62,400 bases of DNA from the IMG/VR virus record IMGVR_UViG_3300046718_000268. One strand, written 5' to 3'. The DNA comes from a virus. Made by a program: the position numbers and the translations under genes. Numbering within the stretch: the stretch's first letter is position 1; every line of letters starts with the position of its first letter. The notes under the pieces are model-generated. The model ran no database searches. It was given only the letters and a program-made list of their open reading frames with translations, and was not told the origin of the DNA. This document shows, one piece after another, positions 10,269 to 55,540 of this stretch.

Positions 10269-10280
10269 AAGGAGACGGAA

Positions 10281-10772: not shown

Positions 10773-10786
10773 AGGGAGCGTATCAA

Positions 10787-11287: not shown

Positions 11288-11565
11288 ATCCAGATCCGAT
11301 TGATTTAGATCTGGAAGACGAACATTATCTGGCGCTGTTTGAATCAATCTCAAAATTTAGAACGACAGGAATGAATGGACCGGATCCAATCCAACCAAGT
11401 CAAATTTTAGGTTGGATGGATATAAACGGCATCCGATTAATGGTAGATGAAGTTAATCTAATAATCGATATTGATGCGTCATTTAGAAGCATTCTAGCAA
11501 GAGAGCAAGAACTAAATCGTCCCAAGGAATATCAAAACGAGGAGCCACAACGGCGTAGAAGATGA
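10787..11565 (+). CDS. tail assembly chaperone frameshift fusion (GT-like), joined by a -1 shift near 11164
   Basis: -1 frame hand-translated as FYAEKLDRIREYLNQYIRYDL...NEEPQRRRR* with no stop between 11137 and 11565. Confidence 0.5.
11158..11164 (+). promoter_or_regulatory. -1 programmed frameshift slippery heptamer A_AAT_TTT
   Basis: In-frame X_XXY_YYZ within codons GAA AAT TTT. The -1 frame is open from 11137 to 11565 and ends in an ATGA overlap with the tape measure start. Confidence 0.55.
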
Positions 11566-23400: not shown

Positions 23401-26400
23401 GCATCTGGGTCGATGGGGCCTATCATTGCACCTTCGATCCGGTCACCGACGGGCGTTCTAATGTGAGCATCGATGTTTCCTACGGCCGTGCTCGCCCCTG
23501 TCATCTTTGCCGTTTCCCTGGCGAGTATCTTGCCAACAACGTCGCGCTGCAAATCTATTCAGCCACCAAGCCGATCTTCAACGGCACTCGGGCGCTGGTG
23601 CGCGGCCGGCCGATCAATTCGATCACCATCGTCAATCCTGGCAGCGGCGGTCCGCACAACGCGGTCATTCCCGTCTATCTCCATGGCGGCGGCAACGGCC
23701 TGCAGGTCCAATGCACGGTGGTCAACGGCGTGATCACCAAGGCTTCCTATGTCGCGTCTGCCCAGGAGATGATGTTCGGCGTCGACTACTTCGACGGCGG
23801 CAACGGCACGGTCTACATCAAGGTCAAGCAGAATGGCGGCAGCGGCGCTATCATCAAGGTGCCGATGAGGATGGGTCAGGGGCTCGATCCAATCTCGACC
23901 TACTTCACGGCGTCGATTTCCGGCACAAATCTGGTAGTGTCGGCAATCACGCCATATTCGGTGAGTGCTGGCGTCACGACGCAGACGGAATTGGAGATTG
24001 GACAATACATCAATGGCGATGGCGTGGCGCAAGGGCAGGTTATTCAGGAGCAGCTTTCGGGACCGCCTGGAGGGATTGGCACCTACCGTGTGAAAATCCC
24101 CCAGACTTTGGCCAGCACGCCGATGAAGGCCCTGCTGCCCTTCGCTACCCAGAATGAAGTTGTCCTCGATCTGGTCGACGCCAGCCACGCTGTCGTCGCT
24201 TCGGCCGGCTCCGGCTACCTCAATGGCGGCAACACGACTGCTGATCTTCCATTGCTAGTCGAAATGGGCCAAGACTTTGTCGGTACCGTGACGACCGATG
24301 GAATCGGGGCAGTGATCTCCACTACTATTATCGATGCTGGTGGCCACTTCCGCGACGTGCCTGACTTTACCTTTGAAAGCGGCATCACTTGGGGCTCGAT
24401 TCCTGTGTTGACAGCCGTGCTGCCTACCGGCAACGTCCAGGGGTTGCAACTCAGGAACATCTACGGCGGGCAGATCGCTAATTCCTATTTCGAAGGTGGC
24501 ATCAACGGCGCGTGGCTGTATGGCGAGACGGTCCAGGGGCTCGACATCCTTTCCAGTGAATTCAAGTCCGATATTGGGGAACCTCTGTTGATTGACGGTA
24601 CAGATCATCTCGGAGTCATGCGTGGTATTACCTTGATTTACGGCGATGGCGTGGCGCGCACGGCGGTTACAGTCCCGCAATCGGGCACGGCTGCCTTCAA
24701 GTCCTGGTCGCGCGGCGAGGACAACCTGATCCAATCGACTGCCGTCATCAAGAATATCCACGGCATGACCTCGTCTACGACCTATCGCGTCGCCGGGTCG
24801 GGCTCGTTGACATTCGACAATCGTTCCATTCCGGCAACCTCCAAGGCGCTGACGGCGTCGGTGGCGGCCCCGGCCATTCCGACACTCACTGCCGATGTGA
24901 TGGCCCCGATCAGCAGAGTTGGTACACAAGACCATGCTATCGGGGCCATCGTTCTTCATCTTAACGATGTGACGAACATTGCTATTGGGATGTGGATCGC
25001 GGGCACTATCTTTCCAGGCGTGCCCAATGGCCAACGGGTGGGAAGCATCGATGCTGGATTGAAGACCGTCACTATAACGGCATCATCCCCATATGTACCT
25101 GGACTGGTTGGCCCGATTCCATCCGGCTCGACGTTCTACTTCCACACTGCAAGAATTCCAGTGTCGAGCACAGCCGGCATCGTGGTCGGCCAGCGCGTGA
25201 CCTCGGCCATTGCTGGACTGCGAATTCCCACCAAGGTCCTCGCCGTGGGCGGGGCGCTGCCGGCCGGCGTGGTCGAGCTGGATGGGCCGCTGCTCTACAC
25301 CATGCCGTCCGGCACGACGGTCACCTTTTCAAATACTACGCTCACCGTTGCCAGCGTGACCGGCGTGTCGGCTGGGCAGCTGGCGTCCTGCGCCGGCCTG
25401 CCGACTGCAATTCCATCGACCACCACCGTTGAAAGCGTGAATATCGGAGCCAATACGATCACGCTGAACAACGGCATCGCGGCGGCAATGCCGAGCACGA
25501 CGGTCGTTGCCTTCGCGGCCATATCGAGCAACCTTTATCTGAAGGGCCAGGACACCGTAGTCCTCAATTCAACTGACGACTATGCGACGTTCCTGTGGAA
25601 CAGCACTTTGGGCCGCGCTGAGTTTGTCGGCAGCAACAACGACGCATTCACATCGTTGAATATCGATCAAGGCGTCACTACGGATTACAATCCAATCCTC
25701 TTTGCAACATCGACCTGGAATAACGCTTCGACGATCTTCTTCGGTATCGAGTTGGATATCATCGATCAGGCGAGCGATCCGACTTCGCGCTTGATGGGCT
25801 TCTACGTTGGCCCTGACGAACCGGGTTTGACCGAGGTGTTTGCCGTTCACAAGAATGGTTCCGTCAGCGTCGGTGCTGGCGGGTCCATATCTGTTGGAAT
25901 AGATGTCCGAAAGGATATAACTGGCGCTGCGTCAGCTTATGGAGTTTTCGTTCGTGGTGAGATTCAGCCTGATGTCACAAATCTGGCTTCATGTTTCACG
26001 ACGCAACCAACCGTAGCTCCTGGAGCTACGTTCACTTCGTTCACTCATTTCTACGCCTTTCAAGGGCTGATTTCCCAAGACGCCAATGTCCAGAATCAGT
26101 ACGGCGTCTTAGTTGCAGCAAATCTTATCGATGCTAGCGTTCTTAATGTCGGCCTCTCTAGTGCGCTTCCAATCGGTTCACCGGGTGCTGTCACCGTTAA
26201 CATCACCGCCATGTCCTATTCTGGCGGAACCGTCACAGCGACCACGGCCAGCCCACATGGTGTCTTGGTCGGACAGCTCTTCCGGGTAGATGGCAGCGTT
26301 GCCGCGACTATTCCGGCTGGCTACAACGGCAATCATGTCGCCACTGCCGGCACGACTGGATCGACTTTGAAATGGGCCGCTGCGGCCGATCCGGGTGCAA

Positions 26401-27188
26401 TCGTTGGCGGCGCGTATGGTCAATCCAAGGCAGTCGGCACGTATAATCTGTATTGCCCGGGAACTGCATTCAATCTTGTATTTGGTCCTTTCGGCGTCGG
26501 GTCTGCAAATCTGAGTGGCTACAGCTTCCGGTCCAATCTCGACATGACTGGCGGTGGAACAGTCTTCACTCGTGCCATCGCGGCGTCGGGTACTATCCAA
26601 TCGGATATCACTGGCACAGCAGCGTATTTTGAAGCCGCTCTGGGAACCGCTGCCGCTGCGTTCACAGTTGGATCGATCTACGCCTATCAAGCCTACATCA
26701 GAGTTGGCGGAATCGGTGCCGGTTCGTCGATTACGAACCTCTTTGGGTTCTATGCCAATAGCACGATGGCTCCGGTGAGTGGAGTCACCAACAGCTATGC
26801 CTTCTATGGCCAGTATCCCGTCCAGGCGAACACCTACAACCTCTATATGGCAGGGACCGCCTTCAACTATCTCGGCGGACCTCTTGGTCTCGGTACAACT
26901 GTTCTGACTGGTTATGCTTTTCGTAATACACTTGCTGGAGCGAATTCTTTCACAGGCGATCTAACAATCTATGCTGCGACGGTAGTACCAGCTGGCGGAT
27001 CGATTGGAGTCGGATATAAAATCAGCTCGACAACTAATCTAGGTTGGTTTGTTGGTTCTGGTCCGCCGACTTTAAGCGCTGCTAAAGGATCTGTCTATAG
27101 CAATACGACGGCAATCACAACAACGAGCCGTGTCTATGTCAATATCGATGGCGGAACGACATGGGCCAACTTTACGGCTTCGGCTTAG
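20439..27188 (+). CDS. giant tail fibre / tailspike (2249 aa) with pectate-lyase-like beta-helix segment
   Basis: Fibre-type N-terminus and LE/LD coiled repeats. FSPALQAAMDFAVANGFEGVYFPPRETPYLL resembles a Pectate_lyase_3 start. Repeated C-terminal modules (TYNLYCPGTAFNLVFGPFGVGSANLSGYSFRSNL / TYNLYMAGTAFNYLGGPLGLGTTVLTGYAFRNTL). Confidence 0.8.
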   Translation: MGTVATKGNTAWRDYETDGVPATGEHRPLKNEIRDFVAAVDAVGVGAGMGLLTFPTLAAMNAYTTAPANTTAQCLQDNNMYRWVSPTWTLIGPSPAAGLSTAQADIDDLQSRVGTIEPIVATHTTEIAALTTQVDANTALLANHEEAITEIWTETDNTADSLQPILDANLDARVTVLEEVNSDVRLDSLESINAGPRLDALEDETGDDHRLDQVEHAVIALGQHVSTLDTQVQAGKDDDLFDPAISEIAVQWSSVVTGDPLNRPSIAASEFYVSSHNGTMIRIQGAAVRAPRAAYRLLNGHKYEILGAVRRANDPTDPLGDSVALRMAWLSSAKAQIAQQTLMTGSLTVSMGLQIYRVIVSLAAGDEVDIVAPASTVYMTPFMQTWGSDGTTDIMPYLRVTDLTSNTLISADTAGMNARISALEDIDAETRLTALEAAVDSNNLVNVLTYQGLEAGGDFSPALQAAMDFAVANGFEGVYFPPRETPYLLNDCDVPPNCKIFGHPQATLSPFGYAYTVFNLTGDNIEFAHLNCVGVGNFEQRHLDGTRGVGAIVYCQLEIVTPGSPPILGLQANADSTYDDLTIADWQPSTPYLGLDVNGDPQSLAKLQPSKTIWSALISHTSDPNSMINDIIAGIWIGTNYGLTLSGGGSNYRATDTEDPGDDPEGVGGPYFDYLVTEANSTTGIPGTGGKLRCYTDAAEGVSGSIIRVRVTAQGSGYRSNSLTDPNRIMRVGNAYPTTRWINGQNVDTVTFPPPINQDIRPFKNLILRDSSFLYGQLPLQAIYCTHLKVLRNYMGYLQGGGVNLIDCDDYTIQDNFIEECWGSQSNGIHVGSYSGDLRPRGVYRGVIAHNRVRRCIGGDGVGIHANSAMIASLVIDGNIMELCETGSTLKHGWNSNTYTPGTFDEFDVGYHGITYTGNVIRVDTGHRGVCFHNNMRDNYQFVVDDSNIIESIGGKVGLNGAVTTAMTVINCMNSVFRPVILGRFYVSIWVDGAYHCTFDPVTDGRSNVSIDVSYGRARPCHLCRFPGEYLANNVALQIYSATKPIFNGTRALVRGRPINSITIVNPGSGGPHNAVIPVYLHGGGNGLQVQCTVVNGVITKASYVASAQEMMFGVDYFDGGNGTVYIKVKQNGGSGAIIKVPMRMGQGLDPISTYFTASISGTNLVVSAITPYSVSAGVTTQTELEIGQYINGDGVAQGQVIQEQLSGPPGGIGTYRVKIPQTLASTPMKALLPFATQNEVVLDLVDASHAVVASAGSGYLNGGNTTADLPLLVEMGQDFVGTVTTDGIGAVISTTIIDAGGHFRDVPDFTFESGITWGSIPVLTAVLPTGNVQGLQLRNIYGGQIANSYFEGGINGAWLYGETVQGLDILSSEFKSDIGEPLLIDGTDHLGVMRGITLIYGDGVARTAVTVPQSGTAAFKSWSRGEDNLIQSTAVIKNIHGMTSSTTYRVAGSGSLTFDNRSIPATSKALTASVAAPAIPTLTADVMAPISRVGTQDHAIGAIVLHLNDVTNIAIGMWIAGTIFPGVPNGQRVGSIDAGLKTVTITASSPYVPGLVGPIPSGSTFYFHTARIPVSSTAGIVVGQRVTSAIAGLRIPTKVLAVGGALPAGVVELDGPLLYTMPSGTTVTFSNTTLTVASVTGVSAGQLASCAGLPTAIPSTTTVESVNIGANTITLNNGIAAAMPSTTVVAFAAISSNLYLKGQDTVVLNSTDDYATFLWNSTLGRAEFVGSNNDAFTSLNIDQGVTTDYNPILFATSTWNNASTIFFGIELDIIDQASDPTSRLMGFYVGPDEPGLTEVFAVHKNGSVSVGAGGSISVGIDVRKDITGAASAYGVFVRGEIQPDVTNLASCFTTQPTVAPGATFTSFTHFYAFQGLISQDANVQNQYGVLVAANLIDASVLNVGLSSALPIGSPGAVTVNITAMSYSGGTVTATTASPHGVLVGQLFRVDGSVAATIPAGYNGNHVATAGTTGSTLKWAAAADPGAIVGGAYGQSKAVGTYNLYCPGTAFNLVFGPFGVGSANLSGYSFRSNLDMTGGGTVFTRAIAASGTIQSDITGTAAYFEAALGTAAAAFTVGSIYAYQAYIRVGGIGAGSSITNLFGFYANSTMAPVSGVTNSYAFYGQYPVQANTYNLYMAGTAFNYLGGPLGLGTTVLTGYAFRNTLAGANSFTGDLTIYAATVVPAGGSIGVGYKISSTTNLGWFVGSGPPTLSAAKGSVYSNTTAITTTSRVYVNIDGGTTWANFTASA

Positions 27189-31154: not shown

Positions 31155-32084
31155 TTAGAAAAGCTCTTGAATCCGAACCTTAAACTTTTCGGATTGACTG
31201 GCATTGATCATCGAGTTAATCACGCCGAAAGACCAGAGGTTGTAGGCGGCTCTCGATTCATAGACTGTCGATAGACGATCGTATGTGAATCCTTGAAGCT
31301 CAAGTTGACGGAGAACATAATCTTGTTCAATCGGCGTCAATGTAGAGACATGCTGTCCCTTATCATGTCGAGCTGGAGACTTTTCAGAGACATTGATAGG
31401 TCCATGTAGAGGATTGACAATCGTACCGAATGCAGCGCTCTGAATCCAGGACGATGAATCACATGAATACCATGGATATCGTTCCATAAGTGGAACAGAT
31501 GTGATTCCGAAGCCATGAACCTTCAACTTAGGTCTGCCGGCACCGTCGATCAGATATTTATTCCATACCCGATCTAACCACACCATCAACTGTTGTGTCG
31601 AAGAACCTACCATGCCGCCTAATGTGATATAGGGATAGTTAGCGACGTAATATTCGAGATATCTTTCATCTTCTCCAGCATGGAAGCATGGCAACGGACG
31701 GAATCCACGATATTCCATTTCGAGCTGATTTCGATAAGTTTGAAGTGGGTCTCCGATGCCGTCAAGCACGGACGCCATGACAATTCCGTCAGAATCGTGT
31801 CTAAGGATATCTGTGTTCTTTTTGATGTACCCAACGTATTCCTCCACTGAGAGATTTACGCCAAGAGTGTATGCCGAAAAGGCACCACTATCAAGAAAGA
31901 TCTGAGCTTTGTTAGCACGCATTTCATCGACAAATTTTTGCTTGCCGACGTAATGCCACGATTCCAGAATATGTGGAAGTTCCCATAAGACCCAACGCTC
32001 TCGATCGTTAAGCTTCTCCCATCTAGCCTGGCCGTGCATGTATCCATTCGAATATACAGCCGCAGTATAGATGTTCATCTTCAT
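31155..32084 (-). CDS. dpdA: DpdA-like DNA-guanine transglycosylase (TGT superfamily)
   Basis: IFLDSGAFS motif typical of DpdA as recalled; about 310 aa; sits in the preQ0-synthesis cluster. Confidence 0.75.
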   Translation of the reverse strand: MKMNIYTAAVYSNGYMHGQARWEKLNDRERWVLWELPHILESWHYVGKQKFVDEMRANKAQIFLDSGAFSAYTLGVNLSVEEYVGYIKKNTDILRHDSDGIVMASVLDGIGDPLQTYRNQLEMEYRGFRPLPCFHAGEDERYLEYYVANYPYITLGGMVGSSTQQLMVWLDRVWNKYLIDGAGRPKLKVHGFGITSVPLMERYPWYSCDSSSWIQSAAFGTIVNPLHGPINVSEKSPARHDKGQHVSTLTPIEQDYVLRQLELQGFTYDRLSTVYESRAAYNLWSFGVINSMINASQSEKFKVRIQELF

Positions 32085-32605
32085 GGGCGATCTTTCTCAT
32101 CGACTAAACCCATGGCTAAAGCTGCTTGAGCACGAGGCGTATTCCAATCAACTGTGACATCTTTGATGATCCATTTCTTCTCATCATTGACGCTAGGAGG
32201 AACTAACAACTTCGCGCGAACACTGTCATAGTTGAGTTTCGCAATAATCTTATTCTTATTAAGTAAATAGCGAAGCTTTGGATCTTCATGAGCATCAGGA
32301 AACTTAGGGTCAATCCAGATCACCATAACCACAAGCGTATGTCTCACGCCGTCATTATCCATGGTAACAGTATCGGATTCTGGATGGATAACATAATGAG
32401 ACTGATCTGGTCGCTTAAGACCTTTTGCCTCATCCATCACTAGCCAGCCACAGTCCCAAAAACGACAGGAGATAGGACGATTTATGTAAATCGAACATCC
32501 AACTCCTTCTTCTTGAAAGCCACATTTATGCCCAGCCTTCTTTCCAATCTCTTCGACTGGAACAAGCTCACAGCACAGTTGACAATCTCCGCATTCCTTT
32601 TTCAT
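32081..32605 (-). CDS. YkgJ-type CxxCxxCC zinc/iron-chelating domain protein
   Basis: N-terminal CGDCQLCCE plus additional Cys (HKCG, GCS, SCRFWDCGW); 4-nt overlap with dpdA. Confidence 0.6.
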   Translation of the reverse strand: MKKECGDCQLCCELVPVEEIGKKAGHKCGFQEEGVGCSIYINRPISCRFWDCGWLVMDEAKGLKRPDQSHYVIHPESDTVTMDNDGVRHTLVVMVIWIDPKFPDAHEDPKLRYLLNKNKIIAKLNYDSVRAKLLVPPSVNDEKKWIIKDVTVDWNTPRAQAALAMGLVDEKDRP

Positions 32606-32629
32606 GTTACAATTATAGCACAGTCGGGG

Positions 32630-32704
32630 TTAACGTGCAAGCATTAAAAATTCATCACGAGCTTCGCGTTCATCTTTCATAACACCGCGTAGCGCTGACG
32701 TTAT
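32630..32704 (-). pseudogene. orphan duplicate of the folE 3' end (24 codons + stop) left downstream of the HNH gene
   Basis: - strand translation ITSALRGVMKDEREARDEFLMLAR*. The first 22 residues match the extant FolE C-terminus exactly, but 15 of the 22 codons differ synonymously. Confidence 0.75.
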
Positions 32705-33081
32705 CATCTTGGGCCTTTCCAATTCGGATTAGCTGGTCCAAATAGACGAGGTCTGACTCCTCTACCGCGGCGTTCTCTATCCTTCATATTTTTATCAGGA
32801 TCATCCAAATAAAAGCATTCCTTCTTAATACATGCTGGTTTATCACAATGATGCAAAACTTGGCAATGTTCTGGGTCTTCTTCAGGAGTTGGAATAGGAC
32901 CGATATAATGTTCATAACTTGCGCGATGAGCAAATCTAAACCATGGAATATTATCAACTGTTCCGCGCATTCTGCCATATCCATCTCGATCCTTCGCGCC
33001 AGTCCAAATATGACAACCGTCCTCATCAATTTGATACTTTTTGAGTTTTTCGCTCATTGGTTTTGAGGATCCTGCTCTCAT
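32704..33081 (-). mobile_element. HNH homing endonuclease gene inserted at the folE 3' end
   Basis: CHIWTGAKDRDGYGRM...FAHRASYEHYIGPIP...VLHHCDKPACIKKEC is an HNH_3-type signature; flanked by duplicated folE 3' ends. Confidence 0.8.
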
Positions 33082-33632
33082 TTTGAAAGCATCAAGAATT
33101 CGTCTCGGGCCTCTCGTTCATCCTTCATGACACCTCTTAAGGCGCTGGTAATCGTGTGATGACCTTGTTGACAGACACCTCTGCTCTCCATACATAGGTG
33201 GCGTGCGCGTACCAGAACGCCTACGCCGATCGGATTTAGTACGCTATGCATGGCATCTGCGATCTGATTAGTGAACCGCTCTTGAACTTGCAAACGTCGT
33301 GCGTACACATCTGATACAAGACGGGAGATTTTGCTGAGTCCGACGATTCGACCATTCGGTATGTAGCCGACGGTGGCGGTCCCGAAGAACGGTGCCATAT
33401 GATGCTCGCAATGACTGTAGAATGGTATGTCTTTTACGAGGATCATTTCGTCGACCGTCTCCGCGCCATCTTCGAAACATTTAAGAATATTCTCCGGACT
33501 GAGTTTATAGCCTGATGTAAAGAACTGCCACGCCTTAGCGACACGATACGGTGTTTCCTCCAATCCTTGACGTTGTGGATCTGGAGTAAGAATTGTCAAC
33601 ATATCATGAATAATAGCTTTGAGAGATTCCAT
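33078..33632 (-). CDS. folE: GTP cyclohydrolase I
   Basis: ETPYRVAKAW, FYSHCEHHMAPF, RLQVQERFTNQIADA motifs; start taken at MESLKAI (GGAG RBS, 2 nt after the queD stop). Confidence 0.9.
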   Translation of the reverse strand: MESLKAIIHDMLTILTPDPQRQGLEETPYRVAKAWQFFTSGYKLSPENILKCFEDGAETVDEMILVKDIPFYSHCEHHMAPFFGTATVGYIPNGRIVGLSKISRLVSDVYARRLQVQERFTNQIADAMHSVLNPIGVGVLVRARHLCMESRGVCQQGHHTITSALRGVMKDEREARDEFLMLSK

Positions 33633-33634
33633 TA

Positions 33635-34012
33635 TTAGAACTCCGGATTGCGTTTTGATATCGCCCAACAGTTCTTTGTCTCCCAGACTTGAACGCTTTC
33701 GCATATGACATTCTGAGATAGCGCACTAGCAATGCGCTCTCGAAACCAGTATGCGATAAATTCTGCTGTCGGATTTTCCAATCCTTCAATGTCGTTAAGC
33801 ATTCGATGATCACAGTAATCGATAAGCGGCAAGACTATGCGATCCAGATCGAAGAAATCTAGAATAAAACCTGTCTCCTGTATCGGTCCAGAAAGAACAA
33901 CTTCGATTTCATAGTTATGACCGTGAGGACGCTTGCACTTGTGGTTATCGGCGACATTTGGTAGCCAATGACCAGCGATGAGTTCATAACGATTTCCAAT
34001 TGTCGTTGTCAT
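33635..34012 (-). CDS. queD: 6-carboxy-5,6,7,8-tetrahydropterin synthase
   Basis: CKRPHGHNYEIEVV and CDHRMLND motifs; 125 aa. Confidence 0.9.
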   Translation of the reverse strand: MTTTIGNRYELIAGHWLPNVADNHKCKRPHGHNYEIEVVLSGPIQETGFILDFFDLDRIVLPLIDYCDHRMLNDIEGLENPTAEFIAYWFRERIASALSQNVICESVQVWETKNCWAISKRNPEF

Positions 34013-34965
34013 AGCGTTGTCCTCAAAACGAGGTTAAGAAGACTTAGATTCGCTTCACTTGTCAGACAATCGTCGATATCCGACAATTCAACGTATTTCG
34101 GATAATGTTCGTCAGCTGGATCAGCTCCAACTAATACAGCCGGCGGATAAACAAAGCCTCTGATAGCGCTAAATGTATTGCCACCTTCTCGAAGATAGAT
34201 GACAATCTTCTCATAACGCTTGCCGTAGGTGTCTCTCCATTCTCTATATCGGCGTTTGAGCGCTGCAATATGATATTCACGAACTTGTGGGTCGCAAAGA
34301 GTTCCATCCCAGTCGTAAGCATTAAAAGGATAGGTCATTTCGGCAAGTGCAGGAATAATACCCGCATTCGAAATATGGATATAATCCAATTCATTGAGCA
34401 CGCCAAGCTCATAGAGCTTCTTCCGAATAGTCGTATGGATGAAGCTCTTACTGTACGGTTTAGCATGCGAACAAATTGTCAAGAACGCAATCTTTCGACT
34501 TGAGTGATCTTCCCAAGCCTTCTTCCAATGCTCCTCGAACATGTCGACTTGCATGCGACCTACGCCTTGATAGAATAGCTTGGGGCTATGACTTGAGAAT
34601 CCTGTCTCTCGGATTATCGGTAAAGTATTAGTATTGTTCGAAATGAATTTGAAGATACTGTCGCTATTACCTTCCCAACGAATGGCATCGTCTCCAATAT
34701 AATAATCGAAGGAAGCTTTGCCGCTTTCGGTCGGATAAGGCGATTCGTTGATATGGTTAACAAACGATATAAGATTGTTATCGGTCAACCATTTTCTAAC
34801 CACATACTCGGGTCTTGTCGTCCAGACGCAAGTTGTGTGCCGAGCACGAAAAAGCATCTTGAGCAAACGAACTGCACGAAGGTCAGGTTCGCCTATTGCT
34901 TCTCCACTATCCCATTTAACAAATCGGGCGAGTGTTCCATCGAGGTCGAGACCGATGACTGACAT
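34009..34965 (-). CDS. fusion protein: N-terminal HAD-like phosphatase fold + C-terminal ArcS-signature (DUF5591-like) domain
   Basis: N-terminus GLDLDGTLA (HAD motif I). C-terminal ICSHAKPYSKSFIH fits the ArcS signature PC-X3-KPY-X2-S-X2-H as recalled. Confidence 0.6.
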   Translation of the reverse strand: MSVIGLDLDGTLARFVKWDSGEAIGEPDLRAVRLLKMLFRARHTTCVWTTRPEYVVRKWLTDNNLISFVNHINESPYPTESGKASFDYYIGDDAIRWEGNSDSIFKFISNNTNTLPIIRETGFSSHSPKLFYQGVGRMQVDMFEEHWKKAWEDHSSRKIAFLTICSHAKPYSKSFIHTTIRKKLYELGVLNELDYIHISNAGIIPALAEMTYPFNAYDWDGTLCDPQVREYHIAALKRRYREWRDTYGKRYEKIVIYLREGGNTFSAIRGFVYPPAVLVGADPADEHYPKYVELSDIDDCLTSEANLSLLNLVLRTTL

Positions 34966-35987
34966 GCAACATTCTCCGCGATTTGTAGAACTTGAGTGAA
35001 TCTGTCAAGCTCTTCCGATGTAGTAACGAACGACGGGCCAACCCTAATATACGGCTTATGCCACGAGATTACAAGCCTATAATGTTCGAACACTTTTCGA
35101 AATTTGTCGTAATTGCCGTCGACTAATTTAAAGCCGAATGCGCCTAGACCATAGAAGCCAAGATCTTGTAGGCGTCGTTGAATATAATTGACACGAAACC
35201 CAAGTTCAATCTCCTCCTGAATTAAGTGAGATAGAACTCGAAGGCCAATGGTTGAGGTGAGGTTGTTGCCACCGCAAGTTGTGTTTAACCCTGTGGGCGG
35301 CACCGTGCGAATCGCTTTGTAGTGGCCCCCTAGCAGCGCTAACGGTGCGCCTTGTGCTATACCCTTACCGGCAATTACCATGTCTGCACTGCGGTTCATA
35401 AATCGAACACCGCAACGCATGAAGCTAGTAATCATTTCGTCGGCTACGAGAGTTGCGCCATATATATCGCACATTTCACGAAGTCGTCTTTCGTCCGGCA
35501 TATGCCCAGACCAGCCCTGAATCGGCTCATAAAAAAGCATGTCGAAGGATGGTACATGATTGGCATTTGGGTCGATTGTAATAAGCTCGATTGGATTACC
35601 CCAAGGCACATCATATCGAGCGCAAGACATCGATATAGACTTACCATGGAACGAGTTTTGAAGAACTGCAACTTTCGGCAGTCTTTTAATTGCAGTGGCA
35701 GTGATTTGGATGGCACGTTCGACTGCTTCGGCTCCAGTGTTGACTAGCAACCATTCGAAACGTGAATCGTAATGATGAAGAAGTTCACATAGCAGTCTTG
35801 CATTTTCCGCAGGACGATCGTAAGTGTTAATGAGACCAGACATAATAACATCGTTTAGTGCGTCATCTACAACTTTCGAACCATGTCCGAGAGACACATT
35901 CAAAATACCGCTGAGCATATCCAACCATTTAAGATTGAACTTGTCGACGATAACATTTCCGTGTGCTGATTTCATCATTTTCTGCAC
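34893..35987 (-). CDS. class-III (PLP-dependent) aminotransferase
   Basis: NTGAEAVERAIQI, FHGKS, ADEMITSFMRCG, ADMVIAGKGIAQGAPL (candidate PLP-lysine) motifs; overlaps both neighbouring genes. Confidence 0.8.
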   Translation of the reverse strand: MQKMMKSAHGNVIVDKFNLKWLDMLSGILNVSLGHGSKVVDDALNDVIMSGLINTYDRPAENARLLCELLHHYDSRFEWLLVNTGAEAVERAIQITATAIKRLPKVAVLQNSFHGKSISMSCARYDVPWGNPIELITIDPNANHVPSFDMLFYEPIQGWSGHMPDERRLREMCDIYGATLVADEMITSFMRCGVRFMNRSADMVIAGKGIAQGAPLALLGGHYKAIRTVPPTGLNTTCGGNNLTSTIGLRVLSHLIQEEIELGFRVNYIQRRLQDLGFYGLGAFGFKLVDGNYDKFRKVFEHYRLVISWHKPYIRVGPSFVTTSEELDRFTQVLQIAENVACQSSVSTSMEHSPDLLNGIVEKQ

Positions 35988-36736
35988 TCATCATAATTGG
36001 TGGTTTTTGGAAGTTCCATCAATCCTTCGCTCCATGCTCTAACCACAAGTGGATCCGGCAGTCCAGCTTTTTCAAAACCGTCTGCTCGGAGCACGTTAGC
36101 GTGATTCATGTCGGTAGGCGGATATTTGCCGTCATACGACGTATGCGTATAGGCTAGAGCTTCCCAACATCCAGGAAGCCCTTTTGCCATTCGAACCGTA
36201 TCAGCTTTAGACAGGTCCATGAGCGGTGTATGAATTCGGATAGGACGAGTACCTCGATGATCATGACCCAACGCGGCATTGATATAATCTTGTGTGCGTC
36301 GGATAAATTCATAACGGCAATCGTCATAGTTGGCATTATCCATCTGACAGACGCCGATGACAATGCTACTGATTCCCCATGCCTCAGCGCGGTTCGCAGC
36401 TATGGTGAGGAACAATGCATTACGCATCGGAACAAACGTCAATTCTCTGCGATCGCCGATGGTCTTTTCCATCTGCTCTGCGTTTTCGTAACGCTCGAGA
36501 GACTGCGACGAATCAACTAATGGTGATTTACTGATTAATTCAGCAGTGTGAATTAAACTCCAAGTCTTAACTTTCGCCATTGCTGTAACTTCTTCAGCTG
36601 CACGAATTTCACGAATATGGGTCTGCCCATAATCGAAAGTAATAGCATGAACTTCTTCGAACATGAACTTAGCCCAGAAGAGGCATGTCGTCGAATCCTG
36701 TCCACCGGAGAGAATTACGAGAGCTTTACTTGACAT
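35975..36736 (-). CDS. queC: 7-cyano-7-deazaguanine synthase-like (QueC family), C-terminal Zn-Cys cluster apparently absent
   Basis: ALVILSGGQDSTTCL PP-loop. The C-terminal SYDGKYPPTDMNHANVLRADGF occupies the place of the usual C..C..C..C motif. Confidence 0.8.
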   Translation of the reverse strand: MSSKALVILSGGQDSTTCLFWAKFMFEEVHAITFDYGQTHIREIRAAEEVTAMAKVKTWSLIHTAELISKSPLVDSSQSLERYENAEQMEKTIGDRRELTFVPMRNALFLTIAANRAEAWGISSIVIGVCQMDNANYDDCRYEFIRRTQDYINAALGHDHRGTRPIRIHTPLMDLSKADTVRMAKGLPGCWEALAYTHTSYDGKYPPTDMNHANVLRADGFEKAGLPDPLVVRAWSEGLMELPKTTNYDECRK

Positions 36737-36899
36737 TGTCCCTCTCTTTAATCATTCGAAGTTTAAGGTCATACAAATATACACGGATTAGTTGGGCATC
36801 AGCAAGCGTTAATTTTTGCAGAGCAGTGATGTCATTACCTTTAACGATTTCTTCAAAGATCCGAAGCAAATCATTAATTGGTGTAAGATTGTTCGGCAT
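36726..36899 (-). CDS. small hypothetical protein (57 aa)
   Basis: Hand translation MPNNLTPINDLLRIFEEIVKGNDITALQKLTLADAQLIRVYLYDLKLRMIKERDNVK; coupled to both neighbours. Confidence 0.35.
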   Translation of the reverse strand: MPNNLTPINDLLRIFEEIVKGNDITALQKLTLADAQLIRVYLYDLKLRMIKERDNVK

Positions 36900-37234
36900 T
36901 AAAAGACTCCGTCACCTGGAACTGCACCTTCAATATCTAAAGATATTGATGTTTTATATTCTTCTATTTTTAGAAATTCACGATGTGCGTCTTTCGGTTT
37001 AACTCCATCGCGAACAATACAAGTATGAAAATCAATAAACATCATAGCAATCTTACCTTCTCTAGAGAGAGAACGTCTTGGAACGTAGCACATTCCTCCT
37101 GAGAATAAAAAGCGTTGATCCCAATAGATATTATTGCCAAGTTCGGCAACTTGAATTAATCCAGGCAAGTGTTTTTGTGAAAGTGGATTTCTTGGATTCC
37201 ACATGACGATATAATTATTAACTGTAATAGTCAT
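36899..37234 (-). CDS. hypothetical protein (111 aa) inside the deazaguanine cluster
   Basis: ORF abutting the queE stop; no motif recognised. Confidence 0.5.
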   Translation of the reverse strand: MTITVNNYIVMWNPRNPLSQKHLPGLIQVAELGNNIYWDQRFLFSGGMCYVPRRSLSREGKIAMMFIDFHTCIVRDGVKPKDAHREFLKIEEYKTSISLDIEGAVPGDGVF

Positions 37235-38002
37235 TTAGTCGACTCCAATAATCTTATGAAGTTGCAGACCAAGAATGTAGCCGTACCTTAGACAGGAGGC
37301 TTTGCATGCTTCGAGCGAAGCTTCATTGCGAGCCAAGTCATCAGGGTTATCGCCAATGCCATGGTCCATGGGCTCAAGGTAAATCGGGACACGGTCCCTT
37401 TCGTATAGTGGAGTGACATATTTTGGTCTGGCAACGACTGACTTGACATTGTGGTTAAGGACTTTGATGGGGAGCCCGTCGATTTTGCTAACGGAGTCAT
37501 AGGACATCACGTATTTGAAGCAACATGCAACTTCGTGAAAGATTGGATGTACACGTCCAGTTTTAGGACTGCAGACAATGTATATACCATCACGCTTTCC
37601 GAGATCTTGTTCATATTCAAAATCTTTCGGAGGCTGTATTGTACCGTTTGTTTCGATTTGAACCCAATAAAGCAATCGACGTAGACGTTTCAAAAGTGGT
37701 TCGAGATTTTGTCGAAAAGGTTCGCCGCCAGTTATGACGATAAGTGGGCTGATGACATTATAACCACAAGCGTCATTGACGCTCGTAGTAATATCGACAA
37801 TTGTCATATATCGACGTTGGCTAGTATAGTCCGTATCACATCCGGGGCATTGAAGATTGCAGCCGGCAAGGCGGATAAAGACTGCCGGCGTACCAGCAAA
37901 CGGACCTTCGCCTTGTATCGTGTAGAAAATAGATTGAATTTCTAGGTCGCCATTCGGATGTGCTTCTCGCTTCTCGATTGGCTGTTGGTTTAACATAGTC
38001 AC
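37235..38002 (-). CDS. queE: 7-carboxy-7-deazaguanine synthase (radical SAM)
   Basis: TIQGEGPFAGTPAVFIRLAGCNLQCPGCDT (Cx14CxxC QueE-type cluster). Confidence 0.85.
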   Translation of the reverse strand: MTMLNQQPIEKREAHPNGDLEIQSIFYTIQGEGPFAGTPAVFIRLAGCNLQCPGCDTDYTSQRRYMTIVDITTSVNDACGYNVISPLIVITGGEPFRQNLEPLLKRLRRLLYWVQIETNGTIQPPKDFEYEQDLGKRDGIYIVCSPKTGRVHPIFHEVACCFKYVMSYDSVSKIDGLPIKVLNHNVKSVVARPKYVTPLYERDRVPIYLEPMDHGIGDNPDDLARNEASLEACKASCLRYGYILGLQLHKIIGVD

Positions 38003-38213: not shown

Positions 38214-38810
38214 TTACGACTGCGGCTGCTCGGAAGCAACCGGAGCCGTGGGGGCGGCGACCGGCGCTGCGGCGACCGGAACGGGCGCGGGCTTCGGCGC
38301 CTCGATCCGACCGCTGATGCCGTGGAACTTCCGCCAGCGAGCGTACTCGGCGCGCACGTTGGCATCGTTCAGACCGCGCGAACGGCTGATTTCCATCGAC
38401 TCCTTGATGGAAGCCGGCTGTCCGTTGCGGGTCGAGACCTCGTCGAACACGTCCCAAGCCTGGGCGCAGAGGCCACCCGGCTTCGGTCGACGGACCTCGT
38501 TCTGCTCCGGCATCTTGTTCGCCTCCTTGGCGGCGAGCATCGCGGCCTTCTGGTCGGCCTTCTCCTTCTCCTTCGCCTGCTTCTCGGCAGCACGAGCGGC
38601 TTCCTTCGCCTGCTTCTCGGCGACCTTGGCCGCCTGCTTGGCGACCTTCTCCGCCTCGCGCTTGGCAGCGGCTTCGGCCTTCGCAGCTTCCTTCGCAGCA
38701 GCGGCAGCAGCCTGAGCGGCAGCGACCGCGGCAGGATCGATGACCGGCGTCGGCGTCGGGGTCGGGGTCGGATTCGGAACAGGCATCGCATTCGGGTCGG
38801 TGGTATCCAT
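38214..38810 (-). CDS. Ala/Lys/Pro-repeat protein with conserved C-terminal WRK..GISG domain (paralog of 54926..55540)
   Basis: Start at MDTTDPN (AAGGAG RBS); PTPTPTPTP and AAKEAAKAEAAAK repeats; C-terminal GGLCAQAWDVF...RAEYARWRKFHGISGR. Confidence 0.6.
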   Translation of the reverse strand: MDTTDPNAMPVPNPTPTPTPTPVIDPAAVAAAQAAAAAAKEAAKAEAAAKREAEKVAKQAAKVAEKQAKEAARAAEKQAKEKEKADQKAAMLAAKEANKMPEQNEVRRPKPGGLCAQAWDVFDEVSTRNGQPASIKESMEISRSRGLNDANVRAEYARWRKFHGISGRIEAPKPAPVPVAAAPVAAPTAPVASEQPQS

Positions 38811-38857
38811 TTTCAGTCTCCTTCTTTGAGTTAGGGAACCATGCGGTTCGTGCAGTA

Positions 38858-38886
38858 TAAATAGCATGTCAGGGCGGACCTTGCAA
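38858..38886 (-). promoter_or_regulatory. promoter-like TTGCAA-N17-TATTTA (- strand) for 38214..38810
   Basis: - strand reads CTTGCAAGGTccgccctgacatgcTATTTA; shares TTGCAAGGT with the early promoters. Confidence 0.45.
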
Positions 38887-38889
38887 GCA

Positions 38890-39480
38890 TTATTTCTTGA
38901 TAGGGCGCATTTTCTGCCAGTTACCAAGTTCGCAGGAGCAAGTCGAACGATTTACTCCCTCTTTCTCAAGGATCTTCATCCACTCCTTGCGGAGCTTAAG
39001 AACAACCTTGATATCGGTCGGGCTACCAGCGGCGGCCCAGAGCTCATCAGCACGTTGCCAAATCAGATCGCGCGTACCAGCCTGACGGGGCGCACGAGAC
39101 ATCAACTGTGCCGGAATTGATGGGTCGGTAGGTGATGTGATATATCCACCGACTAGAACGACAGTTTGCTCTCCGATTGTAGCCATCTTCTTAACCGGAT
39201 GAGCTTCGAAATCATGCTCTCCAAGGAATTCTGGGAAGTTCTCATAGATTGCAATGCTGCGAGCATTGCCGTCCTGGCTGATATTCACCTGAACTTCGAA
39301 ATTCTCGTTATCGCAGAAGATTGGCCGACGTTCCTTGCGGCGAACATCCGATACGCTCTTGATCGGCGCCCACACGCGCGGCGCATCAATCCAATCTGGA
39401 ATCGGCAAACGGATCAATTGTCCGTTCTTATCGAATTTGCGCTTATCCAGAAAGACGGGAATCTTCAGATCGTCTTGCAT
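38890..39480 (-). CDS. hypothetical protein (196 aa); C-terminus distantly like the WRK-domain family
   Basis: ORF; C-terminal ...RSTCSCELGNWQKMRPI. Confidence 0.55.
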   Translation of the reverse strand: MQDDLKIPVFLDKRKFDKNGQLIRLPIPDWIDAPRVWAPIKSVSDVRRKERRPIFCDNENFEVQVNISQDGNARSIAIYENFPEFLGEHDFEAHPVKKMATIGEQTVVLVGGYITSPTDPSIPAQLMSRAPRQAGTRDLIWQRADELWAAAGSPTDIKVVLKLRKEWMKILEKEGVNRSTCSCELGNWQKMRPIKK

Positions 39481-39542: not shown

Positions 39543-41237
39543 TTAGAAGGGGATATCTTCTTCAAGAAGTTGAATCTTATGTACTGGCTGAGTTTTCTTA
39601 TCGACTTGAACTTCAGGCAAATCTTCTGTTGGAGATGATTTATTGAATGCAGATCCATCAAAGCAATACGCGAGAATCTCTGGGTATTTCTTGTTGATCC
39701 AGACCCGAATATGAGTAGCGGCTGGTAGTTCTCCGATATGTTCCAAAGCTTCGCTAGTTGTACTCGGCATTGGATGTTCTGTCCGAAGCTTCCACCAATC
39801 TCTTGCTTTCTTTTGAGCGAATCCATCATGTTCAATACAGATATATTCTTCATATACTTTCAGACCGCAATAATAGCTAACTTTCATCATAGGTGGCCTG
39901 CCCAGTTTGATATATTCTCGGCAGGTAATATGATCAACCTTAATTTCGACTGTCTTTGGCATCTCGCCTTTAATCAACTCAAGCGAGCTAGCTTCTGCTT
40001 TGATTTTAACAGCGATCGGAAAGTCGAAACCGCAGAAAGTGCATTTCCTGACGGAAATATGGTTCCATGTATCGCACGTTGGGCAACATTTGACAGGAGC
40101 TTCGCCTCCACCTTCACCCTTCATGTTTGGAATCAAAGGATCGTTAATCGGACCAAGTCGGCGCGTATTACCGGCAAAATCGAGAGCAAGGCAATTCTTC
40201 TTTCCTGGATACGGTCGCGTACCACGACCAAGCATCTGAACCCATAGTCCGGATGATGCAGTCGGTCGCAAGCATACAATGCAGTCGATCCAGGGCGAAT
40301 CAAACCCTGTGGTTAGGATGTTATTATTCACAATCATTCGAATATTGCCATTTCGGAATGCTGTAATATTTTCGTCACGATTCTTAGGTGGCATTCTCGA
40401 ATGTACAATACCACAAGTTTGACCGAAGCTTTCCATCATCTCTTTAATATGTTCGGCATGTGATATACCGGAAGAGAAGATAAGCCAATGCTGTCGATCA
40501 TGCGCCTGTTCGAGCGCTTCCTTTAGCGCTGCATAGGTGACTTCATTTTTATCGACTGCAATTTGTAGTTCGGTAGAGTTGAACTCACCACCGATCTTAT
40601 GAACGCCTTCTATCGAAAGTTGCGTTTTTGTATTTCTCGGGACAAGCGGAGAAAGATAACCTTCCGCAATCAACCGATTAAAACTTTCAAAGGTTGTAAT
40701 ATCGAAGCAGACATCACTAAATAAGCTCTTACCGTCGGCAATATGCCCATGACCAAGACGAAATGGTGTGGCTGTAAGACCGATGACTTTTAGTTCAGAA
40801 TTAATAGAACGAAGTCCCGTAAGGAACTTCTGATACATGGTGTTATCGTTAGGACCGAGTAAATGTGCCTCATCGATCATAACGAGATCTACACGACCGA
40901 ATTCTGCCCAACGCTTTGCTACGCTAGCGATGCCTGCAAAGATGATCGGAGATCTTGTATCACGTTTATTCAATCCGGCGCTATAAATGCCGGCTGGTGC
41001 GAAGTCCCAACATTGCAGGAGATTTTCATAATTCTGCCGAATGAGTTCTTTTACATGCGTGAGGATTAAAATCTTTTGATTCGGCCATTGCTTAAAGATC
41101 GACTGCAAAAAGCCGGAAATAACCACACTCTTGCCGGTTCCTGTCGGCATGGCGATGACTGGATTACCTTTGGTTTTCGCAAAGTATCCGTAGATCGAGT
41201 TAACAGCCTCGATTTGGTAGTCGCGAAGTGTAATCAT
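39543..41237 (-). CDS. superfamily-2 DEAH-box helicase with Zn-ribbon and SSB-tip-like C-terminus
   Basis: AMPTGTGKS (motif I), MIDEAH (motif II), CPTCDTW...CTFCG; last residues LLEEDIPF. Confidence 0.85.
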   Translation of the reverse strand: MITLRDYQIEAVNSIYGYFAKTKGNPVIAMPTGTGKSVVISGFLQSIFKQWPNQKILILTHVKELIRQNYENLLQCWDFAPAGIYSAGLNKRDTRSPIIFAGIASVAKRWAEFGRVDLVMIDEAHLLGPNDNTMYQKFLTGLRSINSELKVIGLTATPFRLGHGHIADGKSLFSDVCFDITTFESFNRLIAEGYLSPLVPRNTKTQLSIEGVHKIGGEFNSTELQIAVDKNEVTYAALKEALEQAHDRQHWLIFSSGISHAEHIKEMMESFGQTCGIVHSRMPPKNRDENITAFRNGNIRMIVNNNILTTGFDSPWIDCIVCLRPTASSGLWVQMLGRGTRPYPGKKNCLALDFAGNTRRLGPINDPLIPNMKGEGGGEAPVKCCPTCDTWNHISVRKCTFCGFDFPIAVKIKAEASSLELIKGEMPKTVEIKVDHITCREYIKLGRPPMMKVSYYCGLKVYEEYICIEHDGFAQKKARDWWKLRTEHPMPSTTSEALEHIGELPAATHIRVWINKKYPEILAYCFDGSAFNKSSPTEDLPEVQVDKKTQPVHKIQLLEEDIPF

Positions 41238-54925: not shown

Positions 54926-55540
54926 ATGCTTAATATTTCAACAGCTAACAAGGGCCAGCTGCGCCAGGGTATGCGCGATGCTGGTTTGCCGTATGCGGTC
55001 GATGGGCATACGCTTACGAATGAGGAAATGCGCGTTGCACTGCTCGCGCACTTCGGTACGCCGGCGGACGATGTTGCGCCGGTCGTGCAGGAAGAGGAAG
55101 TTGCACCTCCGGTGCAGGCTTTCGATGCCGCGCTGAACGGCGTGGTTGATGCGTGCGCCGCGCAAGTTGCGGTGGACGAGGTTGCTGCACAGGAAGTGCA
55201 GCTTGTTGCCGACCCGACGGAAGTTGCGCCGCTTGTGCAGATTCCGGAAGTTGCGCCCGTCGTGCAGATTCCGACCCCGATGGTTGCGCCGCGCGGTACC
55301 AGCAAGGGGCTCAAAATCCAAAAGGACCGCCCCAGCCAAAACGGTGTACGCATGCCCAGCGAGGGCGGCTTGTGCCGTGCGGTATGGGACTATTTGCAGA
55401 ACGAGTGCGATCACGGCCGCATGCCGACCGCAAAGGACGTCAAGGCGTACGCTGCGACCGTCGGTTGGAACACGAACAATGCAAGTATCGAGTTCTACAA
55501 CTGGCGCAAGTACAATGGGATCTCGGGTCGGCAGAGCTAG
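54926..55540 (+). CDS. early protein with (E/D)VAP.VQ repeats and C-terminal WRK..GISG domain (paralog of 38214..38810)
   Basis: Start at MLNISTANKG. 27-bp tandem repeat at 55220-55246 / 55247-55273. C-terminal GGLCRAVWDYL...SIEFYNWRKYNGISGR. Confidence 0.6.
   Translation: MLNISTANKGQLRQGMRDAGLPYAVDGHTLTNEEMRVALLAHFGTPADDVAPVVQEEEVAPPVQAFDAALNGVVDACAAQVAVDEVAAQEVQLVADPTEVAPLVQIPEVAPVVQIPTPMVAPRGTSKGLKIQKDRPSQNGVRMPSEGGLCRAVWDYLQNECDHGRMPTAKDVKAYAATVGWNTNNASIEFYNWRKYNGISGRQS

Follow-up and report, generated by a model that had tools for sequence, protein, structure and literature searches.

Eight 7-deazaguanine DNA bases are known together with the enzymes that produce them (Cui et al. 2023, PMC10516641), and neither a pyridoxal 5′-phosphate (PLP) enzyme nor a phosphatase is part of any of these pathways. 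The viral DNA analyzed here (IMG/VR record IMGVR_UViG_3300046718_000268, a stretch of 62,400 nucleotides hereafter called the window) carries a gene of class-III PLP aminotransferase fold within a cluster for the synthesis of 7-cyano-7-deazaguanine (preQ0) and its insertion in DNA by DpdA. The present analysis revealed that the domains of an aminotransferase, of a haloacid dehalogenase (HAD)-type phosphatase and of an ArcS2 core are catalytically intact, co-occur and are located in preQ0/DpdA clusters. It is highly probable that the aminotransferase is a dedicated tailoring partner of the HAD phosphatase and of ArcS2, acting downstream of preQ0.

Several described systems can be compared with this locus. 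Gat-QueC yields 2′-deoxyarchaeosine (dG+) instead of the 2′-deoxynucleoside of preQ0 (dPreQ0) (PMC10484667), by turning the preQ0 nitrile into an amidine. In Escherichia phage 9g and Pseudomonas phage MiCath, it occupies the same slot of a syntenic QueE-QueC-...-QueD-FolE-DpdA-clamp-polymerase cluster, the order in MiCath being QueE, Gat-QueC (467 aa), a hypothetical protein, QueD, FolE and DpdA. Therefore, the aminotransferase and HAD-ArcS2 genes of the window occupy the slot devoted to preQ0 tailoring in its relatives. Gat-QueC draws its nitrogen from the class-II glutaminase domain to which QueC is joined, with no PLP enzyme, phosphatase or ArcS core. The QueC of the window is devoid of a Gat domain.

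In Archaea, ArcS couples lysine to the nitrile of preQ0, and RaSEA is required to complete archaeosine (G+); ArcS accepts preQ0 nucleotides but not the free base (PMC11298593). The resemblance with the phage system lies in the addition of an amine (the epsilon-amine of lysine in Archaea) to the preQ0 nitrile, in the requirement for a partner enzyme and in the nucleotide context. The archaeal system differs by its radical-S-adenosylmethionine (SAM) lyase partner, its tRNA substrate and the TGT-like and PUA domains of ArcS, whereas the phage loci combine a PLP enzyme with a phosphatase. No RaSEA radical-SAM partner such as that of Euryarchaeota was found in the related loci or among the roughly 40 window open reading frames (ORFs) scanned with family profiles, QueE being the sole radical-SAM protein among these ORFs.

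ArcS2 proteins of Vibrio phage nt-1 and Sulfolobus virus STSV2 share with the window protein a PF17884 core with a C-x3-KPY-x2-S-x2-H motif, the location in a DpdA-containing viral cluster, a position downstream of preQ0 and the lack of PUA and TGT-like domains. However, they stand alone, whereas the core of the window is joined to an active-looking HAD domain and always paired with a class-III PLP enzyme. Searches by tblastn detected only the ArcS2 core in STSV1/2 and PhiF1, and no homolog of the aminotransferase in Vibrio phages. Co-expression of nt-1 ArcS2 with DpdA2 abolished dPreQ0 and gave only 4-7 dG+ per million nucleotides, the DNA of STSV2 contains the 2′-deoxynucleoside of 7-carboxy-7-deazaguanine (dCDG) and not dG+, and the function of phage ArcS2 was called unclear (PMC10516641). 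Phage PLP enzymes that build DNA bases are known from thymidine hypermodification (PaMx11 gp46/gp47, PMC11472151); their folds and chemistry are different, their targets are the 5-substituents of pyrimidines, which they modify once a kinase has acted, and they show no link with 7-deazaguanine or ArcS.

The original prediction, made from the letters of this DNA, asserted that the synthesis of preQ0, dG+ or dPreQ1 needs no aminotransferase, and the published phage pathways indeed contain none. The terms aminotransferase, transaminase and PLP do not occur in the text of Cui et al. (2023). Hutinet (2019) uses "aminotransferase" once, loosely, for amidotransferases and mentions no PLP enzyme or phosphatase, and the iggy paper (PMC10484667) does not mention any aminotransferase. 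The literature was also searched for 7-deazaguanine pathways with an aminotransferase, PLP enzyme or phosphatase and for the two cyanophages described below, and nothing relevant was retrieved. As far as could be found, the aminotransferase-HAD-ArcS2 triad is undescribed.

Conservation of the triad in phage loci

Loci were gathered from homologs of the aminotransferase, homologs of the HAD-ArcS2 protein down to 38% identity, IMG/VR loci and a contig from a metagenome-assembled genome (MAG), and were annotated with a tblastn table and a profile table. The aminotransferase is accompanied by a HAD phosphatase and an ArcS2 core in all the distinct loci with enough flanking DNA (16 out of 16), whereas generic class-III aminotransferases from the same scans have neither partner. 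This survey confirmed the linkage of homologs with deazaguanine genes on which the original prediction had counted, L045 being the only one of these loci where no queuosine gene was found (in its 10.9 kb).

In the fused lineage (13 loci), the gene order is QueE-QueC-aminotransferase-HAD/DUF5591-QueD-FolE-DpdA-clamp-PolA, except in two cultured Synechococcus phages, Yong-L2-223 (OM868081) and Ssp-JY38 (PP438428), where the aminotransferase (35% identity with that of the window) and HAD-ArcS2 (44%) are encoded as a pair displaced about 4 kb away from the QueE/C/D-FolE-DpdA block. In the split lineage (three loci: L026/L027, L044 and L045), the gene directly after that of the aminotransferase (29% identity) encodes the HAD phosphatase on its own (hhalign probability 97.5%, E = 6e-12) and a stand-alone ArcS2 core is found a few genes off (probability 99.9%, E = 2e-34). 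L026/L027 and L044 also encode FolE, QueD, QueE, QueC and a candidate DpdA3-like transglycosylase; Pfam and PDB searches with this protein were empty and it was identified through tblastn alone, by its match to CGPG_00065 of Cellulophaga phage phiST, the founding DpdA3 (Cui et al. 2023, PMC10516641). The HAD and ArcS2 domains are thus fused in the lineage with a DpdA1-type enzyme and encoded by separate genes in the one with a DpdA3-type enzyme, and the linkage of the triad persists across both types down to roughly 27-31% identity. The module thereby extends to two or more phage lineages whose DpdA types differ, and cultured cyanophages are among its carriers. The aminotransferase and HAD genes form the tightest pair, adjacent and overlapping even where ArcS2 is separate. 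Overall, these comparisons strongly support a predicted role as a pathway enzyme rather than as a passenger.

Some of these loci have additional features. In both Synechococcus phages (L001 and L002), a gene encoding ribose-5-phosphate isomerase B (RpiB; 9988-10431 in each; PF02502, E = 1e-39) follows, its first base being also the last one of HAD-ArcS2. RpiB was considered as a universal fourth component and rejected, being found only in these two phages and neither in the other loci nor in the window; it may be a hint of a pentose-phosphate-derived substrate or an ordinary cyanophage metabolic gene. In L045, the HAD gene that follows the aminotransferase (4586-6259) is broken by an intein with an HNH domain, its 557-aa product matching the HAD profile at residues 102-145 and 463-526 besides the Pfam Hint and Intein_splicing families. 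Inteins usually occupy conserved sites in important enzymes. In L044, the stand-alone ArcS2 gene is directly followed by a gene (8876-11326) whose product joins a uracil-DNA glycosylase domain (PF03167) to a DNA polymerase of family A (DNA_pol_A), which fits the UDG-PolA subfamily named in a 2025 preprint (10.1101/2025.03.26.645540).

The aminotransferase family is rare. When 1.84 billion representative proteins were searched exhaustively with a profile, about 18 representatives (320-374 aa) were retrieved at E <= 1e-39, beyond which a continuum of generic ArgD proteins begins. The first protein of this continuum (P0291) was considered as a Rosetta-stone fusion and rejected, since it is an ordinary ArgB/NAGS-ArgD fusion. 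Among 185,579 prokaryotic species (one genome each), a single member was found, on a 24-kb MAG contig that displays the same phage synteny. The BFVD database contains no close viral structure, the best match being only 17% identical. The family is essentially confined to phages.

The aminotransferase

The claim that the gene encodes a class-III aminotransferase whose PLP lysine lies in an AGKG motif was corroborated by a match to PF00202 (Aminotran_3; E = 6e-28, 98.1 bits versus a gathering score of 30.5) and by the alignment of K205 with the Schiff-base lysine of ArgD. This lysine is invariant in 31 homologs and in distant lineages; D180-E181 (D180 as the pyridine-N Asp), T81-G82-x-E84-A85 (TGAEA), T234 and R312 are also invariant across the 31 homologs. 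Homologs have 335-345 aa and 44-59% identity with the window protein. The nearest PDB neighbors retrieved by Foldseek with the AlphaFold model (predicted local distance difference test (pLDDT) score 87, predicted template modeling score (pTM) 0.86) are ArgD, GabT and OAT structures (1vef, 2ord, 7nn1 and 1sf2; template modeling (TM) score about 0.8, E from 2.5e-25 to about 1e-24), and class-III-fold racemases were retrieved at TM scores like those of the transaminases. Sequence and model indicate an intact PLP enzyme of class-III fold, for which transamination would be the most likely chemistry although not the sole one of this fold.

ArgD, GabT and OAT, which are the best sequence and structure matches of the phage protein, have in common with it the fold-type-I class-III architecture, the PLP lysine, the Asp, the phosphate-binding TGAEA and the C-terminal Arg. 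However, they are longer (385-450 aa versus 335-374 aa for the phage proteins), they form a separate clade and they differ in several motifs: FHGR is replaced by FHGK in the phage family and the Glu of QGEGG by Trp or another residue, two positions that define substrate handling in ArgD, GabT and OAT, and GRTG is replaced by RCG. FHGK was found in 49 of the 51 family sequences, compared to [FY]HGR in 248 of 315 generic class-III relatives. The Glu of QGEGG is absent from all 51 family sequences (QGWSG in the window) and present in 235 of the 315 relatives. The protein also falls far below the cut-offs of the curated models, whether those of ArgD (79 bits versus 410 for TIGR00707, 49-74 versus 372-616 for the others) or those of GabT and PuuE (49-75 bits versus 507-747; 75 versus 724 for GabT), and the NCBIfam models of HemL, OAT, EctB, PigE and LysJ score below those of ArgD and GabT. 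By these profiles, the window enzyme would belong to none of the curated class-III families. As to its phylogenetic placement among class-III enzymes, proposed earlier, all the deazaguanine-linked aminotransferases are separated from ArgD-like and GabT-like proteins by one split in a neighbor-joining (NJ) tree (100 of 100 bootstraps).

The limits of the gene had to be refined. The ORF described initially (34893-35987, minus strand) is present and encodes 364 aa from an alternative GTG start (35985-35987), which would produce the reported 13-nt overlap with queC, whose stop is TGA at 35975-35977. However, the ATG at 35976-35978 creates a 4-nt ATGA overlap with this stop and the N-termini of the homologs align to its Met. 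The start was therefore taken at 35978, likely the true one, and the 13-nt overlap would hold only for the GTG start.

At the other end, the aminotransferase stops with TAG at 34893-34895 and the HAD-ArcS2 gene starts with ATG at 34963-34965, preceded by GGAGA. The N-terminus of HAD-ArcS2 is the HAD motif itself (MSVIGLDLDGTLA), and therefore the reported 73-nt overlap is real. However, it is specific to the window. Homologs lack the C-terminal extension that lies in it: they have 335-345 aa, cover 93% of the query and stop two or three codons past a conserved 'AE'. Furthermore, the extension has a pLDDT below 50 in the AlphaFold model. In 12 related loci, the two genes overlap by 10 nt or less or are separated by a short gap, and in the two cyanophages they overlap by 19 nt. 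Therefore, the long overlap is a lineage-specific read-through and not a conserved device. Conservation of the tail in tblastn matches to L007, L010 and L036 was considered and rejected because the alignments pass real stop codons; what is conserved there is the N-terminus of HAD, translated in a different frame.

The original prediction deduced from these overlaps that the gene is co-expressed with the pathway and is not a passenger. Comparative genomics upheld the second part. As for the first, the genes are tightly packed, and it is from this packing that translational coupling and co-expression are inferred. A scan of the 27.5-42.5 kb region for promoters and terminators gave what is expected from shuffled sequences (29 versus 25 and 16 versus 14, respectively), which argues neither for nor against a single operon.

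The HAD-ArcS2 partner

The 318-aa partner combines a HAD phosphatase domain with a DUF5591/ArcS core. Most of its 56 homologs have 314-346 aa, and the alignments of nearly all of them span 97-100% of the query; therefore, the HAD-ArcS fusion is conserved. The AlphaFold model has two domains (pLDDT 87). A PDB sequence search with the whole protein gave nothing at E <= 1, and the domains were placed in the PDB by fold search alone.

HAD motifs I-IV were all found in the N-terminal domain, with D7, D9, T11 and K83 invariant, D92 nearly so and T49/T50 as Ser/Thr motif (29-30 sequences). The isolated domain has no Pfam match and a weak one to NCBIfam NF046079. Foldseek retrieved the BT_0820 HAD structure (2obb; E = 8e-5, TMt 0.67) and, more weakly, phage HY126 AfhF, MDP-1 and GmhB; AfhF is an arabinose-1,5-bisphosphate phosphatase (PMC13326640). 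Judging from the model, the structural neighbors of this domain are small HADs without a cap, and several of these have sugar phosphates as substrates.

The ArcS motif of the window (34435-34476) is ICSHAKPYSKSFIH. This motif, in which an Ile replaces the leading Pro of PC-x3-KPY-x2-S-x2-H, is invariant across 29 homologs, and C165, H167, K169, P170, Y171, S174 and H177 are invariant or nearly so (29-30 sequences). Foldseek matches this domain to AF0587 (2q07), an archaeal ArcS-like protein, with a probability of 1.0.

Proposed mechanism and alternatives

The original prediction hesitated between an enzyme that makes an amine donor and one that transaminates a keto or aldehyde intermediate on the 7-substituent. 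Given the constant HAD and ArcS2 partners, the amine-donor option is favored, the donor deriving most likely from a phosphorylated carbonyl compound. FolE, QueD, QueE and QueC would convert GTP to preQ0, and DpdA would exchange G for preQ0 in the phage DNA. The aminotransferase, probably with glutamate as donor, would aminate a phosphorylated aldehyde or ketone of central metabolism (candidates are a triose, tetrose or pentose phosphate), and the HAD phosphatase would then strip the phosphate to give a non-standard primary amine, for example an amino alcohol or an amino sugar. Finally, ArcS2 would add this amine to the preQ0 nitrile, probably via its invariant Cys and most likely in DNA. The product would be an amidine-type base, either an N-substituted 2′-deoxyarchaeosine or, should the substituent be lost, dG+ itself. 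The succession of these steps and the nature of both amine and product are what we infer.

Some observations guided this proposal. The conserved phosphatase implies a phosphorylated intermediate. Two facts lead us to expect that preQ0 is tailored when already embedded in DNA: the free base is not accepted by archaeal ArcS, and the DpdA of the window is close to that of phages with plain preQ0 or Gat-QueC. The sugar-phosphate-like neighbors of the HAD domain, the RpiB of the cyanophages and the replacement of the distal-site Arg by Lys are compatible with an amine derived from a sugar or triose phosphate. In HisC/HisB-N, SerC/SerB and NtdA/NtdB, a keto- or aldo-phosphate is aminated and then dephosphorylated to an amino alcohol or amino sugar, the same succession being encoded by adjacent genes; however, the aminotransferases HisC, SerC and NtdA belong to other classes (I/II, V and DegT) and the products are primary metabolites or antibiotics that are not attached to a nucleobase.

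The overall explanation by a triad of aminotransferase, HAD phosphatase and ArcS2 amidine-forming core is the best that we can offer, and we consider its chances of being right or wrong to be balanced. The specific amine-donor model leading to an N-substituted amidine is more tentative, somewhat below that balance. The same reserve applies to a new 7-deazaguanine derivative, an N-substituted 2′-deoxyarchaeosine whose amidine N would bear an amino-alcohol- or amino-sugar-type group derived from a sugar or triose phosphate, which we put forward as a possibility slightly less probable than its negation.

Several points weigh against the amine-donor proposal. The class-III fold also houses racemases, aminomutases and phospho-lyases, so that transamination is assumed. 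R312, the Arg from which binding of the keto-acid carboxylate is expected, is replaced in two distant members (by Lys in L021 and by Ile in L027). The HAD domain could act on a substrate other than the amine precursor. RpiB is limited to two cyanophages. The outgroups of the NJ tree were themselves retrieved with family queries. Lastly, neither HAD nor ArcS2 was found near the aminotransferase of L046, in the 1.4 kb of flank available before the end of the contig.

If the proposal is true, the base would be a ninth or further member of the 7-deazaguanine DNA-base series, and the aminotransferase the first PLP transaminase in purine DNA hypermodification. More generally, the triad predicts either a new hypermodified guanine analog or a path to dG+ through other enzymes than those known. 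The odd products of stand-alone ArcS2 proteins (traces of dG+ with nt-1, dCDG in STSV2) may find an explanation as well, since ArcS cores may in general depend on an amine source of their own. Novel bases in DNA alter which restriction, CRISPR and glycosylase defenses a phage escapes, and they also bring enzymes for site-specific derivatization of DNA.

The alternative that survives best is that the triad provides another route to plain dG+. The aminotransferase and the HAD phosphatase would supply or recycle a nitrogen carrier that ArcS2 adds and whose carbon skeleton is then shed, in analogy with the Gat domain of Gat-QueC or with lysine and RaSEA; the base would be known and only the route new. 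We regard this as unlikely, although it has real arguments: the module occupies the Gat-QueC slot of sister phages, including the known dG+ maker 9g, the DpdA is 70-77% identical to those of Gat-QueC phages, no product other than dG+ has been demonstrated with an ArcS2 of phage origin (PMC10516641), and archaeal ArcS takes an amino acid as a transient nitrogen carrier from which a second enzyme releases G+ (PMC11298593). However, a transaminase releases no ammonia, no enzyme able to cleave the N-alkyl bond is evident (QueE being the only radical-SAM protein among the scanned ORFs), two extra enzymes are costly compared to one glutaminase domain, and the conserved phosphatase would have no obvious role.

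The aminotransferase could also belong to the pathway with a PLP chemistry other than transamination, such as racemisation, an aminomutase reaction or a phospho-lyase reaction that frees ammonia for ArcS2. Foldseek gives class-III-fold racemases the same TM scores as transaminases, two substrate residues of transaminases are replaced and R312 is not universal in the family. We nevertheless hold such a chemistry to be improbable, since the nearest sequence relatives are the transaminases ArgD and GabT, R312 is retained in most members and a phospho-lyase would render the phosphatase redundant.

Transamination of a carbonyl on the 7-substituent (from 7-formyl-7-deazaguanine to preQ1), or reduction of the nitrile by pyridoxamine 5′-phosphate (PMP), would yield a dPreQ1-type base without QueF. 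This second option of the original prediction is disfavored and, in our estimation, slightly more improbable still. Class-III enzymes typically interconvert terminal aldehydes and primary amines, and Pfam and NCBIfam profiles detected no QueF in the cluster. However, no reductase that would make the 7-formyl intermediate was found among the roughly 40 scanned ORFs, and the invariant HAD and ArcS2 partners, of which the phosphatase in particular, would be left unexplained, the known chemistry of ArcS2 being the addition of an amine to a nitrile. To our knowledge, a PMP-driven reduction of a nitrile is without precedent.

Lastly, a passenger or auxiliary metabolic gene of ArgD/GabT type that boosts arginine, GABA or polyamine metabolism of the host, as suggested by some database names ('acetylornithine aminotransferase' or '4-aminobutyrate aminotransferase') and by the fact that phages do carry metabolic genes, is strongly disfavored and very improbable, since the best NCBIfam scores reach 79 bits versus cut-offs of 372-850, the substrate-binding Arg and the Glu switch are replaced, and the family is rare, phage-restricted and linked to HAD and ArcS2 across two DpdA types.

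Organization of the window

Proteins of the window were compared with the Pfam, NCBIfam and PHROGs libraries. The triad belongs to a densely packed replication and modification module on the minus strand (27.9-41.2 kb), which encodes, from high to low coordinates, a helicase, two small conserved ORFs, QueE, orf111, orf57, QueC, the aminotransferase, HAD-ArcS2, QueD, FolE, an HNH protein, orf174, DpdA, a sliding clamp and PolA (Table 1). FolE, QueD, QueE, QueC and DpdA, the set that defines a preQ0/DpdA cluster (Hutinet 2019; Cui 2023), are all encoded on this strand within 31155-38002, and the last 4 nt of the HAD-ArcS2 gene also belong to queD. The DpdA of the window shares 77% identity with its counterpart in Pseudomonas phage MiCath and about 70% with those of 9g, NP1, PaMx25 and Vid5. 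Therefore, the window derives from a phage of Queuovirinae-like architecture. Neither QueF, a second radical-SAM enzyme, a reductase nor a sugar enzyme was found among the roughly 40 scanned ORFs.

Table 1. Coordinates of the triad, of the preQ0/DpdA cluster and of other features in the window
Feature	Position	Strand	Remarks
Class-III PLP aminotransferase-fold gene	34893-35978	-	361 aa from ATG 35978; PF00202
Window-specific C-terminal extension	34896-34967	-	Residues 338-361 (~24 codons), almost wholly in the 73-nt overlap
Candidate PLP Schiff-base lysine codon	35364-35366	-	K205 in AGKG; aligned with the catalytic Lys of Thermotoga ArgD structures 2e54/2ord
FHGK family signature	35640-35651	-	FHGR in canonical ArgD, GabT and OAT, the Arg binding the substrate carboxylate
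HAD-ArcS2 gene	34009-34965	-	318 aa
HAD-type phosphatase domain	34630-34965	-	Residues 1-112; DxDxT at 34933-34947
ArcS2/DUF5591 core	34012-34587	-	Residues 127-318; PF17884 (E = 1.3e-8, 35.3 bits versus 26); NCBIfam ArcS alpha match
Helicase	39543-41237	-	
queE	37235-38002	-	Radical-SAM CDG synthase; phrog_2076 (E = 2e-52) and NCBIfam QueE models
queC	35975-36736	-	preQ0 synthase, unfused; PF06508 (E = 2e-51); TIGR00364 above its cut-off
queD	33635-34012	-	CPH4 synthase; PF01242 (E = 8.5e-31)
folE	33078-33704	-	GTP cyclohydrolase I; PF01227 (E = 6e-66)
dpdA	31155-32084	-	DNA guanine transglycosylase, Queuovirinae DpdA1 type; phrog_887 (E = 6e-88)
HNH endonuclease gene	32704-33081	-	phrog_1872 (E = 5e-22)
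HNH gene and folE-tail copy	32633-33081	-	
orf174	32081-32605	-	Weak matches to PF03692 and phrog_9155
orf111 and orf57	36726-37234	-	No family match
High-GC segment	38023-38927	both	About 54% GC
Conserved ORF upstream of queE	38214-38927	-	Ala/Lys/Pro-rich
Partial paralog of the preceding ORF	55331-55531	+	
Nucleoside 2-deoxyribosyltransferase-like gene	61340-61837	+	PF05014 (E = 1e-10)
2249-aa ORF	20439-27188		

Some genes of the module are peculiar to the window. The HNH endonuclease gene, located at the 3′ end of folE and absent from all related loci, is directly followed by a second copy of the last 24 codons of folE (ITSALRGVMKDEREARDEFLMLAR and stop), 92% identical at the protein level, with differences that are mostly synonymous and at third positions. 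The whole looks like a homing-endonuclease insertion that brought a recoded copy of its target. The Cys-rich orf174 product has a CxxCxxCC-like N-terminus and its gene shares 4 nt with the start of dpdA; tblastn detected no counterpart of it in the related loci, and L007 has an unrelated 168-aa ORF in that place. Likewise, orf111 and orf57, located between queE and queC, have no counterpart in related loci, where queE directly abuts queC. These three ORFs and the HNH gene were considered as conserved members of the pathway and rejected because they have no match in any related locus.

Upstream of queE, the segment of high guanine-cytosine (GC) content has several long overlapping ORFs in different frames, on both strands. 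One of them is conserved: its C-terminal ~75 residues are kept upstream of queE in nearly all related loci, and it has a partial paralog elsewhere in the window. The nucleoside 2-deoxyribosyltransferase-like gene could be relevant to the salvage of bases or deoxynucleosides while deazaguanine takes the place of guanine. The GC content of the window is a mosaic, with a minimum of 39% at 18-20 kb and a maximum of 57% at 22-26 kb and at 56-58 kb, and the 2249-aa ORF lies inside a high-GC block.

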